Shown: positions 56,887 to 60,434 of the stretch, piece after piece
Numbering within the stretch: position 1 is the first letter of the stretch
Layout of the letters: the number at the start of each line of letters is the position of its first letter
From: a virus
Lineage: Duplodnaviria > Heunggongvirae > Uroviricota > Caudoviricetes
Virus record (IMG/VR): IMGVR_UViG_3300045988_138358
Strand: one strand, 5' to 3'
DNA length: 64,000 bases
Translations under genes and position numbers: made by a program
Notes under the pieces: model-generated
Told to the model about the DNA's origin: nothing
Database searches by the model: none
The model's input: only the letters and a program-made list of their open reading frames with translations

Positions 56887-57279
56887 CTACCAGCGAGATA
56901 AGCGAACGACGTGTTTTACCTTAGCGATCCACTTACCACGTGAGTTATTAATTACGGCCTGCGCCACCTTTAAGCTGACTTCAAAATCAGCCTTACGACC
57001 ATCAGAATCCACCAGCGTTGCACCGTCTATTTCCGGCAGGCTTAAATAATCCTGTTCTACCTCTAATGGCATTGACGGCTCTCTGAATGGTGTCAATTGC
57101 CGAGCTTTCCAGATAAAGCGAACTCTCAATCCCCTATAAGCCATTACCATGTAGCCTGTTATCGTGCTCTTATGGCCTGCATCAGTACGCGCAGCATTAC
57201 ACGATACAATCTTACAGGTGACGATATTCCACTCCACGTTGGAGACTTCGTGAATGCTTAATTTTGTTGTCTCGTACAT
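56887..57279 (-). CDS. hypothetical protein
   Basis: ORF track 130 aa. Confidence 0.3.
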   Translation of the reverse strand: MYETTKLSIHEVSNVEWNIVTCKIVSCNAARTDAGHKSTITGYMVMAYRGLRVRFIWKARQLTPFREPSMPLEVEQDYLSLPEIDGATLVDSDGRKADFEVSLKVAQAVINNSRGKWIAKVKHVVRLSRW

Positions 57280-57854
57280 CAGAATGCCTCCCAGTCAGTT
57301 GCGATAATATCCACGCCAGTTGCGAACCAGTCTGTCTGCGCCTGTAAATCCCCATTCATCATTACCAGGCGAGGCATAACCATCACATCGCACCCTTCCA
57401 CAATATCGAATGCCTCTTCCGGCAAGAATTCGAAGAGCTTTTCTTTGCTGCCAATGCTGCCACGGAACATCGATAAATAGCTCCCTTTAGGCCATGATGC
57501 CCGGCGGGCATCCAGCCCCTTCATCATCCAGAACATGGCGGCAGAAAAATTGATGTTCTTTTTGGCGATGAAAACATTATTGGCTTCTGTTTGCTTCAGA
57601 AACTTAATTAGCCTTGCCATCGACTCGGATAACGCTACGTATGGCTCATGATTGGCTGCGGACACGCTCACACCATGTAATCCAACACTGACTACCGTCA
57701 TATCGCCGCTTTGAGCGGTTTCAATGTTGACACCTTTGCGAACTAACGAGGCATAAAGTTCCTCTCGCTTTTGTGTCCAGCGTTCCCGCTGACCGATGAA
57801 GTCACTCAATATGAGGTCTGCTTCTGCATACGCGTTATCGTTCGCCGTTAACAT
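57279..57854 (-). CDS. fusion protein with C-terminal DUF2829-like (Tad2-like) domain, more divergent
   Basis: ORF track 191 aa; C-terminal half (AAMFWMMKGLDARRASWPKG .. PRLVMMNGDLQAQTDWFATGVDIIATDWEAF) follows the same pattern. Confidence 0.4.
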   Translation of the reverse strand: MLTANDNAYAEADLILSDFIGQRERWTQKREELYASLVRKGVNIETAQSGDMTVVSVGLHGVSVSAANHEPYVALSESMARLIKFLKQTEANNVFIAKKNINFSAAMFWMMKGLDARRASWPKGSYLSMFRGSIGSKEKLFEFLPEEAFDIVEGCDVMVMPRLVMMNGDLQAQTDWFATGVDIIATDWEAF

Positions 57855-57989: not shown

Positions 57990-58307
57990 TGCCAGGTTAG
58001 CCACTCCTGGCGACGTCACTTATCAGAACGTAGTGAATGAAAATGGCTTCGTCACGAGCGCATAGCCGCAATTACCACAACGGAAACGGCGCTCACGCTA
58101 ATTAAACGCCTTTTCCTGTTGTGCGCCGTACTCTTCCGGCTGTCACACCGAATCGCCAGGGTGGTGAGTCCTCGGTCCGACGATATGAACGGGGCTTGCA
58201 CATTCCGGCTACCTGGTTTGTTGCCTGAGCTAGGGGAAAAGGTAACCCCTTTAACGTCACCAGACCGCTAACGACGCATGTGCCATACGCCGTGTTACAA
58301 CCAAATA

Positions 58308-58383
58308 TGGTGGCCCCTACCGGACTTGAACCGGTGACCGTGCGATTATGAGTCGCCAGCTCTAACCACTGAGCTAAAGGGCC
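58308..58383 (-). tRNA. tRNA with CAU anticodon (Ile2 lysidine-type or Met)
   Basis: Hand-folded cloverleaf, 7-bp acceptor stem, T-loop TTCAAGT, CCA encoded; close to E. coli ileX as I recall it. Confidence 0.75.
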
Positions 58384-58392
58384 AGATTACTG

Positions 58393-58521
58393 TTAATTCC
58401 GCTTACGCTTTTTGCCAGAACCGCGTAAGGCTTTTGCCGCTTGCTCGATCCCATATGCAACCACCAGCAGAAATAAAAATGTCCAACCAGGGTTCTTATC
58501 GGCAAAGGCCCAAAAATCCAT
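58393..58521 (-). CDS. small hydrophobic protein, 42 aa
   Basis: Hand-found; one hydrophobic helix and basic tail; ends 10 nt before the CAU tRNA. Confidence 0.25.
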   Translation of the reverse strand: MDFWAFADKNPGWTFLFLLVVAYGIEQAAKALRGSGKKRKRN

Positions 58522-58572
58522 CACTTGCAGCTACCTTTTAAGACAAAACGCCATTGCTGTTAGATTGCGGTG

Positions 58573-58587
58573 CCTGGTGCCTCCAGG
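58573..58587. ncRNA. short hairpin CCTGG-TGCCT-CCAGG
   Basis: Second of three hairpins with identical loop and covarying stems. Confidence 0.3.
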
Positions 58588-58795
58588 TGACGTTAACCAG
58601 TTAACAATTAACGCCGGGATGTTTGATTTAACCACTAAGGAGGATTGTTTTAACTGTTCCGCGTGCGCTTAGCCGCATTCACCGCAATGGTAAGAGCACT
58701 TGGCTGGCTGGGCGGCGATGACGCCTGTACGCATTTGGTGATCCGGTTCTGCTTCCGGCATTCGCTTAATTAGCCAAATACTCTTAACGTTGCGC

Positions 58796-58882
58796 TGGCG
58801 GAGAGTAATGGAATCGAACCATCATCGCTTGCGCAATGGGACGGTTTTCAAGACCGCTTGAGCACCATGCTCCCTACTCTCC
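58796..58882 (-). tRNA. tRNA-Ser-like (UGA anticodon, long variable arm), divergent
   Basis: Hand-folded: 7-bp acceptor stem, anticodon loop CTTGAAA, long variable arm, T-loop TTCGATT, discriminator G, CCA encoded; D-arm unusual. Confidence 0.55.
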
Positions 58883-59028
58883 GGCCGTTGTGGTGGCCGG
58901 TACTGAATCTCCGGCATACGGTGCAGCCAATTAGGACTACGGACGATCACCGCTCGCGAAAGGGAAGATTTGCGGCCGCATTTCCCTAACATCCAAGAAA
59001 GCTATCGCATCAGTCTGCGAATCCACCA

Positions 59029-59118
59029 CAACGTTGAGAACACTGGTTGTCACGCTGCAACGCAACATTTATTCGTAGATTGGGATATGACCCCGTTACG
59101 TCAGTGTTCTCAACGTTG
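59029..59118. ncRNA. long hairpin: perfect 17-bp inverted repeats around a 56-nt interior
   Basis: Arms at 59029-59045 and 59102-59118 are exact reverse complements. Confidence 0.4.
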
Positions 59119-59265
59119 TAGTACCGGTTACGGTTCCGGCCAGGCCTCTTCCTCAACGGGGTATTCTCCATACGGACTACCGTTTATTGGTCGTTCCTGC
59201 GGTTTATGTTGTGAAGCCAGATGCTTATCTTCTGGTTGCTTCAAAGAGCTGCACTTCATCACAAC

Positions 59266-59339
59266 GGTAAGGGTACTTCGTAGGGATTCGAACCCTCTGC
59301 CAAGCACGGCGATCTCCGACGTCGCAAAATACCCTTACC
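59266..59339 (-). ncRNA. tRNA-like element: 10-bp closing stem around a canonical T-arm, no canonical cloverleaf
   Basis: Closing stem GGTAAGGGTA/TACCCTTACC with internal T-arm-like hairpin; I could not fold it as a standard tRNA. Confidence 0.35.
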
Positions 59340-59347
59340 TGTTGTGT

Positions 59348-59423
59348 TGGTGCCGATTAACGGACTCGAACCGCTGACATCCTGCTTACAAGGCAGGCGC
59401 TCTACCAACTGAGCTAAACCGGC
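59348..59423 (-). tRNA. tRNA-Thr (UGU)
   Basis: Hand-folded cloverleaf; anticodon loop CTTGTAA; T-loop TTCGAGT; CCA encoded. Confidence 0.75.
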
Positions 59424-59425
59424 AT

Positions 59426-59502
59426 TGGCGATGGTGGGTGGATTCGAACCACCGACCGACAGCTTAGAAGGCTGCTGCTCTATCCTACTGAGCTACACCA
59501 TC
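59426..59502 (-). tRNA. tRNA-Arg (UCU)
   Basis: Hand-folded cloverleaf; perfect 7-bp acceptor stem; anticodon loop CTTCTAA; 2 nt from tRNA-Thr. Confidence 0.75.
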
Positions 59503-60005
59503 ACTTGCCGGTTACGTCTCCGGCGAGGGCTTCCACCTCCGTATGCTTTTCGGCGCACCGCGCCCTGGCTGCAATTCGGTAACAGGGGATGCACAACCCT
59601 GGCTTCCAGCGTGATTAGCGCCTTCAGCATGACGGGATATACCCGTAACCAACAAACTTTCCCATATACCATCAAACAATGGCTGTTACGCGGGAGGGAC
59701 GTAACAGGTAAGGGCGCTGACCAGAAAGACCTGACCCTTCTCATTCATCTGGTTAATCACACCAGCGCCCTTGCCTGTTATGCCTCCCCGTTCCCTAATA
59801 CACAGACGGGGACACTCTGCGGTCGATTTTTTGACGGGGGACGACTCATACCCCGTGGCGTCTGGCTTCTTAGGCCGCTACCATCATCAGATCATCGTTT
59901 GCATTTACTTTAATGGTCGGTTTCTAAACCGCCGCAAAGCCGCTAACCATGACGAAAACCCTAAAAAAGCCCACCCGAAGATGGGCAAATACGCTACATC
60001 TCACA

Positions 60006-60084
60006 CAAGAAAGAAGCCGACTGCCTGAGCTGGATTCACTTTCAAATGCCCGCAGAAAGGGAACACAAGTCGGCTTCTTTCTTG
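60006..60084. ncRNA. long hairpin: perfect 17-bp inverted repeats around a 45-nt interior
   Basis: Arms at 60006-60022 and 60068-60084. Confidence 0.4.
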
Positions 60085-60212
60085 ATGCGGCACTCTCTCC
60101 GCCCGTCACCGCTCTGTCTCGGTTGTCGCGTTTGCCACGCCAGCCATAACGAGGTTTAAAGTCTTTGCACGTTTCCATCACTCGACTGCCGTCTGTGGCT
60201 GTTCGTTGCAGC

Positions 60213-60227
60213 GGGGGTGCCTCCCCC
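60213..60227. ncRNA. short hairpin GGGGG-TGCCT-CCCCC
   Basis: Third of three hairpins with identical loop and covarying stems. Confidence 0.3.
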
Positions 60228-60300
60228 TGGGGATATCCCCGGCCTTACCCCATTCTTTCAAGACACAATGCAAGGCCGCATCCGCATAGGTGCATTACCG

Positions 60301-60367
60301 CAACATTAAGGAGACTTAGGGCAAAAGGTAATCGCCACAAAAAAATCCCTATGCCTCCTTAATGTTG
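60301..60367. ncRNA. long hairpin: 13-bp perfect inverted repeats, 41-nt interior with nested TAGGG/CCCTA pairing
   Basis: Seen directly. Confidence 0.35.
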
Positions 60368-60375
60368 AGGATGTG

Positions 60376-60434
60376 CATTGATGATGATTCGATGCGGCGA
60401 GTCCCGTTACTCTCTGCCGGACCATCATCAATGA
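60376..60434. ncRNA. hairpin: 11-bp perfect inverted repeats (CATTGATGATG / CATCATCAATG), 37-nt interior
   Basis: Seen directly. Confidence 0.35.

Follow-up and report, generated by a model that had tools for sequence, protein, structure and literature searches.

Introduction

Several RNAs resemble transfer RNA (tRNA) without serving as adaptors in translation. The mascRNA and menRNA of MALAT1 and NEAT1 (Rfam RF01684) are eukaryotic; their fold is small and tRNA-like, and its anticodon arm is stunted. They lie inside a longer noncoding precursor and carry a 7-base-pair (bp) acceptor stem that is freed by RNase P and RNase Z. The tRNA-like domain of transfer-messenger RNA (tmRNA) mimics the acceptor and T arm without an anticodon arm; the free ends of tmRNA carry CCA, and the molecule also contains a G-U alanine identity pair, pseudoknots and a tag open reading frame (ORF). 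Polycistronic RNAs of phages carry RNase III hairpins, such as the T7 R sites and those of the lambda N leader, in which an irregular helix of about 20 bp lies between units. The bacterial Y RNAs, among them YrlA (RF02553) and Yrn1 of D. radiodurans, are noncoding and combine a long terminal helix with a tRNA-like D/T domain; they are modified by tRNA enzymes, and some are phage-encoded (PMC4201824). Phages also encode the STnc100/PasD small RNAs (sRNAs; RF02076), which have been described as Hfq-dependent base-pairing sRNAs without tRNA features (bioRxiv 10.64898/2026.05.13.724894). In this study, we analysed a 74-nucleotide (nt) element, designated unit T, at 59266-59339 of a 64,000-nt virus sequence (IMG/VR record IMGVR_UViG_3300045988_138358), which is called the window below. 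An earlier note, made from the sequence alone, had described it as a tRNA-like element that does not fold as a canonical tRNA. We found that unit T is very probably a conserved, functional tRNA-like noncoding RNA module, and neither a tRNA nor a tRNA pseudogene.

Results

Fold and strand of unit T

Coordinates are positions in the whole window, and the RNA sense of unit T is read from 59339 to 59266. The earlier note had described a 10-bp closing stem around a T arm and one other small hairpin, with six extra nucleotides between the T arm and the stem. All three paired parts were present: GGTAAGGGTA (59266-59275) pairs with TACCCTTACC (59330-59339), the T arm at 59282-59296 reads AGGG-UUCGAAU-CCCU on the minus strand, and the second hairpin is CGA[CGUCGGAGA]UCG. 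However, the six nucleotides (ACGAAG) do not form a spacer, as five of them pair with UUUUG, and the pairs 13:62 and 14:61 covary in the alignment of 19 copies presented below (U-A/G-C; U-G/C-G/A-U/G-C). The closing stem is therefore 15 bp long and abuts the T stem. Beyond a bulged A it continues into a 6-bp extension, CACAAC/GUUGUG, so that the full closing helix has 21 pairs. The extension takes the forms CAUAAC/GUUGUG, CCCAC/GUGGG and CGAAAU/AGUUUUCG in other phages. Since GUUGUG also forms the edge of the next hairpin (unit Y), these two pairings are mutually exclusive.

On the minus strand, unit T reads GGUAAGGGUAUUUUG CGACGUCGGAGAUCG CCGUGCUUGG CAG AGGGUUCGAAUCCCU A CGAAGUACCCUUACC. Four helices meet at one junction, namely the long closing helix, a D-arm-like hairpin, a mini-hairpin of 2-3 bp and the T arm (Table 1). 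A fourth pair, G15/C31, is possible on the D-arm-like hairpin. The modelled layout is that of a cloverleaf whose acceptor limb is too long and whose anticodon limb is nearly gone. The fold was more stable than those of shuffled sequences (z = -4.1), and 0 of 200 shuffles folded as well.

Many of the stem pairs are G-U, which become A-C mismatches if the opposite strand is read. U11-G64 is a conserved wobble, with U-G in 15 of the 19 copies. The covariance model scored the minus strand at 106.9 bits, compared with 20.5 bits for the plus strand. These results indicate that selection acts on the RNA of the minus strand, which is the tRNA-sense strand.

Search for a canonical tRNA fold

The earlier note had stated that unit T has no canonical tRNA fold, and that a standard fold found by a scanner in another register would speak against this. 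No such fold was found in any register by ARAGORN in four modes or by the Rfam tRNA model (RF00005). ARAGORN in its default mode made no tRNA call on unit T in the window, and the -ps, -ps95 and -mt modes returned 0 genes on the excised unit. The Rfam model (gathering threshold 29 bits) gave no match on unit T at gathering over the whole window, none at E ≤ 10 on 2.5 kb, and none at E ≤ 10 on 103 nt with the laxest filters. An anticodon arm, also reported as missing, was indeed absent: between the D-like hairpin and the T arm there is only CC..GG, forming 2-3 bp around a loop of 4-7 nt. Nor does unit T have a 7-bp acceptor stem with free ends, a discriminator or CCA, as the helix runs for 15 + 6 bp and its 3' strand continues as CCCUUACC. 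It does carry the T-loop consensus UUCRANY, in AGGG-UUCGAAU-CCCU at 59296..59282, which is invariant in all copies. Unit T keeps the motifs of the tRNA elbow and lacks everything that decoding needs.

Conservation and covariation

We aligned 19 distinct unit T sequences from P1-like, lambdoid and P22-like phages. Pairs were counted for one named structure, with shuffles (n = 500) and slid controls. There were 43 invariant columns, among them those of the D-like hairpin, the CC and GG of the mini-hairpin, and (C/U)AGAGGGUUCGAAUCCCUAC; in the D-arm-like hairpin, only two loop positions varied. The mini-hairpin loop (columns 43-49) was the sole hypervariable part, differing in both sequence and length. 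Indels of 1 nt occur in this variable loop, and no conserved reading frame therefore runs through unit T.

The closing helix behaved differently from the core. Across its 21 pairs, 88.5% to 91.8% of cells were paired, compared with 30-54% in the slid controls, and 13 of the 21 pairs had changed on both sides. None of the 500 shuffles reached any of four measures. Whole stems have been replaced, by GGCGAGGAUACUGUG/CGCAGCGUCCUCACC in L106 and by AAUGAGAGCACUGUG/CUCAGUGCUCUCAUU in L130. An invariant core together with a compensated stem indicates purifying selection and not decay. These results contradict one suggestion of the earlier note, that unit T may be a degraded tRNA. Its other suggestions, that unit T is a tRNA-like element serving in processing or as a decoy, or belongs to the precursor of a regulatory RNA, are consistent with the co-oriented array of tRNA and sRNA-like units in which unit T lies.

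A conformational switch, in which the variable loop pairs with the 3' strand of the closing helix, was considered and rejected. The duplex energies were weak and mostly no better than those of shuffled loops.

Distribution and genomic settings

The 1.8 kb around unit T was 99.8% identical to E. coli plasmid p92_MLI108-2, 97% to phage D6 and about 93% to P7 and P1. These identities indicate that the window is a P1-like phage-plasmid of the D6 type. Unit T is present in P1 itself, D6, SJ46 and RCS47, and the 148 nt around it were 99.3% identical in P1, D6 and SJ46. It is accessory among P1-like genomes: P7 has the same stem with a different insert, and RCS47 has both units in tandem. Among 5426 complete E. 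coli genomes, 464 contained unit T; 466 of its 475 places were on plasmids, and the Prokaryotic Genome Annotation Pipeline (PGAP) annotates no gene there.

Beyond the P1 group, pattern scans of IMG/VR revealed more than 20 further, diverged copies in lambdoid and P22-like contigs. In the lambdoid contigs, unit T occupies the late-operon leader, with the Q antiterminator (PF03589 or PF06530) on one side and the holin on the other, and an STnc100/PasD-like unit nearly always follows it directly. In several P22-like contigs, it is part of a moron that separates the terminase gene from the portal gene; there it is on the opposite strand and upstream of a PF13876 gene. The fetched stretch contained no tRNA gene at 17 of the 20 non-P1 loci, which shows that unit T is not a by-product of tRNA clusters. 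A scan of genome contigs with the pattern CGGAGATCN{10,20}GGGTTCGAATCCC returned 44 loci, one of them Escherichia; the remainder come from unrelated phyla and are presumably ordinary tRNAs. No spread of unit T outside enterobacterial phages and plasmids was seen in that 44-locus scan. Noncoding hairpin arrays were also observed upstream of the PF13876 (N4 gp49 / Sf6 gene 66) gene in P22-like morons and in N4-like IME11.

A shared hairpin scaffold with many cargos

The closing helix of unit T belongs to a sequence-conserved scaffold, ..AACAGGUAAGRGCAUUG ... CAGUGCUCUUUCC GUUG.. (also AACAGGUAAGAGCAUUG ... UGCUCUUUCC), which is common to P1-like and lambdoid phages, N4-like IME11, Vi1-like Magnus and siphoviruses. 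Membership in this widespread family, like the strand and the true stem length, goes beyond what the earlier note had seen. A scan of IMG/VR for the 5' strand of the scaffold gave at least 116 units (loci L150-L267). The inserts of the 116 units listed, here called cargos, formed at least 40 unrelated clusters of 37-173 nt, and T-loop motifs were found in six of 40 clusters. In 89 of the 116 units listed, the scaffold was directly followed by GTTGTGGTGAATG / GUUGUGGUGAAUG, the start of a unit with the Rfam STnc100 architecture.

T hairpins with other stems were found in other cargos: GCGG[UUCGAUU]CCGC, GUGGG[UUCAACU]CCCAC, AAGG[UUCGAUU]CCUU and GGGG[UUCGAUU]CCCC. The first of these belongs to a second cargo type, in which a D-like hairpin, GCAU[AUCUGGGAA]AUGC, takes the corresponding position, with the same loop length and GG position, and is accompanied by a mini-hairpin with a tetraloop. 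The two cargo types were compared by eye; a MAFFT alignment put the T arm one column off.

Single scaffold units were seen in further settings. Klebsiella phage ST16-OXA48phi5.2 has one with a different cargo after four tRNA genes, in the late-leader position, and HK620 has one between qut and the late terminator. A complete hammerhead core, CUGACGAG...GGACGAAAC...GUC, was present in one insert (minus strand of locus L243, 7921-7967); its Hammerhead_1 score of 24.7 bits was below gathering (34; E 5.5e-4 in a local search). A conserved hairpin with the loop GUGUGAUUAAUAAU (GCCC...GGGC) often lies upstream of the scaffold, at about 1385-1425 in L148 and L149, at about 1385-1410 in L147, and in several IMG/VR loci; its form in Magnus, GCCCUGA...UCAGGGC, is compensatory.

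Keyword and sequence-string searches, with partial coverage of the literature, found no description of unit T or of the scaffold. A recent preprint linked STnc100 to the PasD prophage sRNAs, and neither unit T nor the scaffold is described there (bioRxiv 10.64898/2026.05.13.724894). The scaffold with its many cargos does not seem to have been described before.

Comparison with known RNAs

Searches of Rfam 15 at gathering and at E ≤ 10 identified no known family in unit T, nor in further scaffold units from ten related loci. The top alignment for unit T was with the mascRNA family RF01684 and was not significant (14.2 bits; E 1.1; gathering 42.5). As the family is absent from Rfam 15, a model made from these alignments would improve the annotation of phage genomes.

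With canonical tRNA (RF00005), unit T shares the UUCGAAU T loop with its G-C closing pair, a D-like loop with GG and a terminal A, a T stem placed on the terminal helix, and its location among tRNA genes. Unlike tRNA, it lacks the anticodon arm, the 8-9 and 26 connectors, the discriminator and CCA, and its terminal helix has 15-21 bp instead of 7. The resemblance to mascRNA and menRNA lies in the small tRNA-like fold, the stunted anticodon arm and the proposed position inside a longer noncoding precursor. Those RNAs differ in being eukaryotic and in their 7-bp acceptor stem with ends freed by RNase P and RNase Z. Unit T resembles the tRNA-like domain of tmRNA as an acceptor/T-arm mimic without an anticodon arm, but it has none of the other tmRNA features named above. 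ARAGORN found no tmRNA in the window, and the Rfam tmRNA model aligned to unit T with 6 bits over 13 nt.

Like YrlA and Yrn1, unit T is noncoding and has a tRNA-like D/T domain at the end of a long helix. The order of its parts is long stem, D-like hairpin, mini-hairpin, T arm and long stem, whereas the long stem of YrlA is at the anticodon position (PMC4201824). The only regional match of the YrlA model was on the genuine tRNAs at 59398-59458, with none on unit T. YrlA lies next to rsr. In contrast, no rsr (Ro60/TROVE) was found among the annotated or Pfam-scanned neighbours of unit T, which were Tad2, hypothetical proteins, tci genes, Q antiterminators, holins, gp49_66, terminase, portal, repressor and ParB-like genes. 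STnc100/PasD sRNAs occupy the same niche (phage late leaders and the P1 array) and have similar helix edges, ..GGUGAAU...CACC.., but differ in lacking tRNA features; their model did not match unit T and gave its STnc100-like match at 58566-58686. The helix of unit T is also like the RNase III hairpins in having about 20 bp with a bulge between the units of an array, and its 21 pairs amount to roughly two helical turns. The apical part of the T7 and lambda sites is not known to carry conserved functional cargo, in contrast to the conserved cargo of unit T. By analogy, unit T may be likened to tRNA mimics of the mascRNA, Y RNA and tmRNA kind, although it fails the tests for membership in each of these classes. 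The phi80 M3 RNA, long known as an RNase P substrate, was considered and set aside, as the phi80 late leader has neither unit T nor the scaffold.

The array around unit T

The window has four tRNA genes, all on the minus strand (ARAGORN, Rfam). As the earlier note had indicated, unit T lies between genuine tRNAs, tRNA-Thr and tRNA-Ser. The features of the array and the related features of other loci (L numbers) are collected in Table 1.

Table 1. Parts of unit T, neighbouring features in the window, and related features of other loci
Feature	Position	Strand	Remarks
Unit T, tRNA-like module, 74 nt	59266..59339	minus	RNA = GGUAAGGGUAUUUUGCGACGUCGGAGAUCGCCGUGCUUGGCAGAGGGUUCGAAUCCCUACGAAGUACCCUUACC; covariance model R1 106.9 bits, E 7e-28
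Closing helix, 5' strand, nt 1-15	59325..59339	minus	Pairs with 59266-59280; compensatory changes at most positions
Closing helix, 3' strand, nt 60-74, including the six nucleotides earlier taken as extra	59266..59280	minus	13:62 and 14:61 covary
Helix extension, 5' half, CACAAC	59341..59346	minus	Pairs with GUUGUG 59260-59265; A59340 bulged
Helix extension, 3' half, GUUGUG	59260..59265	minus	Also 5' edge of the next hairpin (unit Y)
D-arm-like hairpin CGA[CGUCGGAGA]UCG, nt 16-30	59310..59324	minus	9-nt loop, GG at loop positions 5-6, terminal A
Mini-hairpin CC(G)[UGCU](U)GG, nt 31-40, at the place of the anticodon arm	59300..59309	minus	CC and GG invariant
T arm AGGG-UUCGAAU-CCCU, nt 44-58	59282..59296	minus	Invariant; flanked by G43/A59 mismatch; stacks on closing helix
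tRNA-Arg(UCU), first tRNA of the array	59426..59502	minus	ARAGORN and Rfam, 72.1 bits
tRNA-Thr(UGU)	59348..59423	minus	72.9 bits; encoded CCA ends 8 nt before unit T
tRNA-Ser(UGA)	58796..58882	minus	ARAGORN; Rfam tRNA-Sec 46.6 bits vs gathering 47
CAU tRNA	58308-58383	minus	RefSeq label Ile
Unit Y hairpin GUUGUGAUGAAG...CUUCACAAC	59208..59265	minus	Directly 3' of unit T, no gap
Second scaffold-type hairpin CAUAACAGGCAAGGGCGCUGG...CAGCGCCCUUACCUGUUA, non-tRNA-like cargo	59696..59785	minus	Upstream of tRNA-Arg; R1 18.5-20.6 bits; -42.1 kcal/mol
Third scaffold-type hairpin CAACGUUAAGAGUAUUUGGC...GCCAAGUGCUCUUACCAUUG, non-tRNA-like insert	58679..58797	minus	Directly after tRNA-Ser; R1 19.2 bits; -45.7 kcal/mol
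STnc100-like sRNA unit ('unit X' type)	58566..58686	minus	RF02076, 39.4 bits, E 1.8e-6, gathering 47
Tad2 (Thoeris anti-defence) gene	~57279-57854	minus	Mapped from L001 580-1155, annotation in 99.8%-identical plasmid
Further scaffold units	L144 2414-2526; L145 2499-2584; L147 1409-1541; L148 1426-1536; L149 1429-1524
PF13876-family genes	L005 549-1147; L149 2570-2992		In L134, L136 and L143, ORFs 300-970 nt downstream of unit T

The tRNA-Ser gene was missed by the Rfam tRNA model; according to the D6 record, tRNAscan-SE assigned no amino acid to it, and one RefSeq plasmid lists it as tRNA-OTHER. Whether or not unit T is present, unit Y is kept at 80-97% in P7, P22-like Salmonella phages, Sashavirus and Klebsiella phage-plasmids. 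P7 and RCS47 hold units homologous to the STnc100-like unit. The Tad2 gene is co-oriented with the array and located a short way downstream of it. A near-perfect hairpin of about 90 nt (GUUGAGAACACUG..., 59029-59119) separates unit Y from tRNA-Ser; its sole Rfam matches were to microRNA models at chance level on both strands. A stretch GUUUUCGUCAUGGUUAGCGGCUUUGCGGCGGUUUAGAAACCGACC...AAAUGCAAACGAUGA (about 59890-59965, minus strand) follows a terminator-like hairpin at 59986..59969. It was also found just downstream of unit T in three unrelated lambdoid contigs (L010, L018 and L087) and may be a further conserved module or a promoter region. The homologous stretch of P1 is the leader of the ban operon, with a dicF-like region, tRNA-Asn, tRNA-Thr, tciABC and tRNA-Ile.

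Discussion

We propose that unit T is a functional, non-decoding tRNA mimic of P1-like and lambdoid phages. The array of tRNA and sRNA-like units would be transcribed as one precursor, and the helix of about 21 bp, which has the size of an RNase III substrate, may serve as a handle for processing and stability. From their sequences, the D and T loops are predicted to dock into a tRNA elbow. Unit T would then work in trans and occupy a factor by which the elbow and the acceptor/T helix are recognised, with RNase P, T-loop modification enzymes and a tRNA-directed host nuclease as candidates. Its role would be that of a decoy or a handle and not that of a translation adaptor, and the decoy role in particular is put forward conditionally. 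Taken as a whole, with the trans-acting mechanism included, this reading is tentative, and we would be only slightly more surprised to see it upheld than to see it fail.

Several observations weigh against the proposal. Because the core is invariant, the D-like stem, the mini-hairpin and the T stem have no covariation within the family. An alternative fold, in which UCGGA from the D-like loop is paired to UUCGA from the T loop, has an energy of -31.6 kcal/mol, compared with -30.5 kcal/mol when the T arm is forced; the T hairpins with different stems kept by other cargos tip the balance toward the T hairpin. G15 may pair with C60 or with C31, which leaves the geometry of the junction uncertain. 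Most cargos of the 116 scaffold units listed are not tRNA-like, so tRNA likeness may matter less than the scaffold. The tRNA-targeting defence nucleases that we know of cut the anticodon or the variable loop, both of which are absent in unit T. As for transcription, a sigma-70 consensus scan of 58200-60400 found no promoter, and the P1 C1-operator consensus had no match within 3 mismatches anywhere in the window; control by Pban and the C1 operator as in P1 was rejected on these grounds.

Unit T could instead be processing punctuation in cis, with no function of its own. Its tRNA-like fold would attract tRNA maturation enzymes that cut a polycistronic leader, with RNase P working at its 5' side and RNase E/Z or exonucleases at its 3' side. 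In this way tRNA-Thr would gain its mature 3' end, and the sRNA-like hairpin that comes next its mature 5' end. We regard this as unlikely, yet there is precedent for it: the C4 RNA of P1 and P7 is matured by RNase P, and mascRNA is processing punctuation for MALAT1, as tRNAs are in mitochondrial transcripts. It also counts in its favour that RNase P uses a distance of 12 bp from the elbow as its measure and also cuts several RNAs other than tRNA (PMC10731613), and that YrlA of M. smegmatis is cut by RNase P and receives CCA (PMC4201824). The position of unit T fits as well, since it begins 8 nt past the CCA of tRNA-Thr and the next hairpin adjoins it without a gap, and since a STnc100/PasD-like unit so regularly follows, both in the lambdoid copies and, through GTTGTGGTGAATG, in 89 of the 116 scaffold units listed. 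The T stem stacked on the closing helix is like an acceptor/T minihelix. However, the helix runs unbroken for 15-21 bp, beyond the 12-bp mark, where there is neither a single-stranded 5' leader nor RCCA, and in the work of Chen et al. Y RNAs that lacked a 7-bp acceptor stem escaped cleavage (PMC4201824). Many cargos without tRNA features occupy the same scaffold at the same position, which means that punctuation needs no tRNA likeness. Most non-P1 copies have no neighbouring tRNA. Finally, an invariance of about 45 nt exceeds what an RNase P signal should require. It is the missing leader and RCCA, the tRNA-featureless cargos and the extent of the invariance that lead us to prefer a mimic acting in trans over a cleavage signal in cis.

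Four other explanations are each unlikely. A Y-RNA-like module, whose long stem would bind a Ro60/Rsr-type protein while its tRNA-like part tethers an effector such as PNPase, has little probability. A long helix with a D/T tRNA-like domain does recall the bacterial Y RNAs, some of them phage-encoded, and the long stem of Yrn1 is on the acceptor side as in unit T, but the arms of YrlA are permuted, with the T arm, an acceptor-like loop and then the D arm (PMC4201824). The Rfam YrlA model has no match on unit T, and the neighbourhoods examined (Q antiterminator, holin, gp49_66 gene, terminase and Tad2) contain no rsr. To our knowledge, Rsr is also missing from most strains of E. coli, which is the chief host of the P1-like copies. 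Slightly less probable still is an element acting at the DNA level, with inverted repeats as recombination or attachment sites for cassette exchange and an irrelevant RNA fold. Recombinant copies with mismatched outer-stem halves (L009 and L132) and the cargo swaps and tandem duplications exactly at the scaffold in P7 and RCS47 fit such an element, as does the common use of T-arm halves of tRNA genes as integrase targets (PMC8022706). It would not account for the numerous G-U pairs, the conserved U-G wobble, the strong strand asymmetry of the model score or the invariant core of the cargo, and no integrase was adjacent in the contexts examined. A functionless, degraded tRNA left over from a tRNA cluster is highly improbable. 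Parts of it are clearly tRNA-derived and it lies between real tRNA genes in P1-like genomes, but P1-like, lambdoid and P22-like copies share 43 invariant columns and have compensatory stem changes that 0 of 500 shuffles matched. These findings do not suit decay; nor do the 17 of 20 other loci without a nearby tRNA gene or the precise insertion into a conserved scaffold. The diverged stems of the non-P1 copies speak against recent transfer of a single sequence. We give equally little credence to the idea that conservation is due to an opposite-strand protein, the putative lipoprotein Plp, with the RNA fold incidental. The P1 annotation does place plp over this stretch, antisense to unit T (NC_005856 69472-69849), and a plus-strand ORF of the window (58970-59377) is homologous, with 97% identity over 122 amino acids. 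Yet this ORF has no ATG and a different N-terminus, it overlaps two conserved RNA hairpins and 30 nt of tRNA-Thr in antisense orientation, and in RCS47 the C-terminal third, which is the part antisense to unit T, has been replaced. The frame is not kept in the non-P1 copies, given their 1-nt indels inside the element and their different flanks, and PGAP annotates no gene there in the E. coli plasmids. Thus, plp is probably not a real gene.

A broader reading goes beyond the tRNA-like mimic itself, and we consider it doubtful, somewhat more so than punctuation. Unit T would be one cargo of an undescribed and horizontally mobile scaffold system of P1-like, lambdoid, P22-like, N4-like, Vi1-like and siphoviral phages, usually fused to an STnc100/PasD-type unit. 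Its conserved closing helix would display exchangeable structured RNAs, among them several independent mimics of the tRNA elbow, a hammerhead-like ribozyme core and dozens more. The cargos would be fast-evolving RNA decoys or regulators against host factors or defences, with the tRNA mimics directed at tRNA-directed immunity or at tRNA-processing enzymes.

P1 is a standard laboratory phage, and in its genome the conserved object in the stretch annotated as plp appears to be a structured RNA of the opposite strand. If our reading is true, P1-like plasmids, which are common in clinical Enterobacteriaceae, and widespread lambdoid phages make a non-decoding tRNA mimic. This would add a bacterial-virus example to the few tRNA look-alikes with roles outside translation (Y RNAs, mascRNA, tmRNA and the tRNA-like structures of plant viruses). 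It would also provide a concrete candidate for interference at the RNA level with host enzymes or defences that read tRNA, adjoining phage tRNA genes and an anti-Thoeris gene. Many of the tiny hypothetical proteins in such regions would probably be spurious, which would be useful for annotation. The multi-cargo scaffold would be a natural and stable display of small structured RNAs, and perhaps useful in the design of RNA expression.

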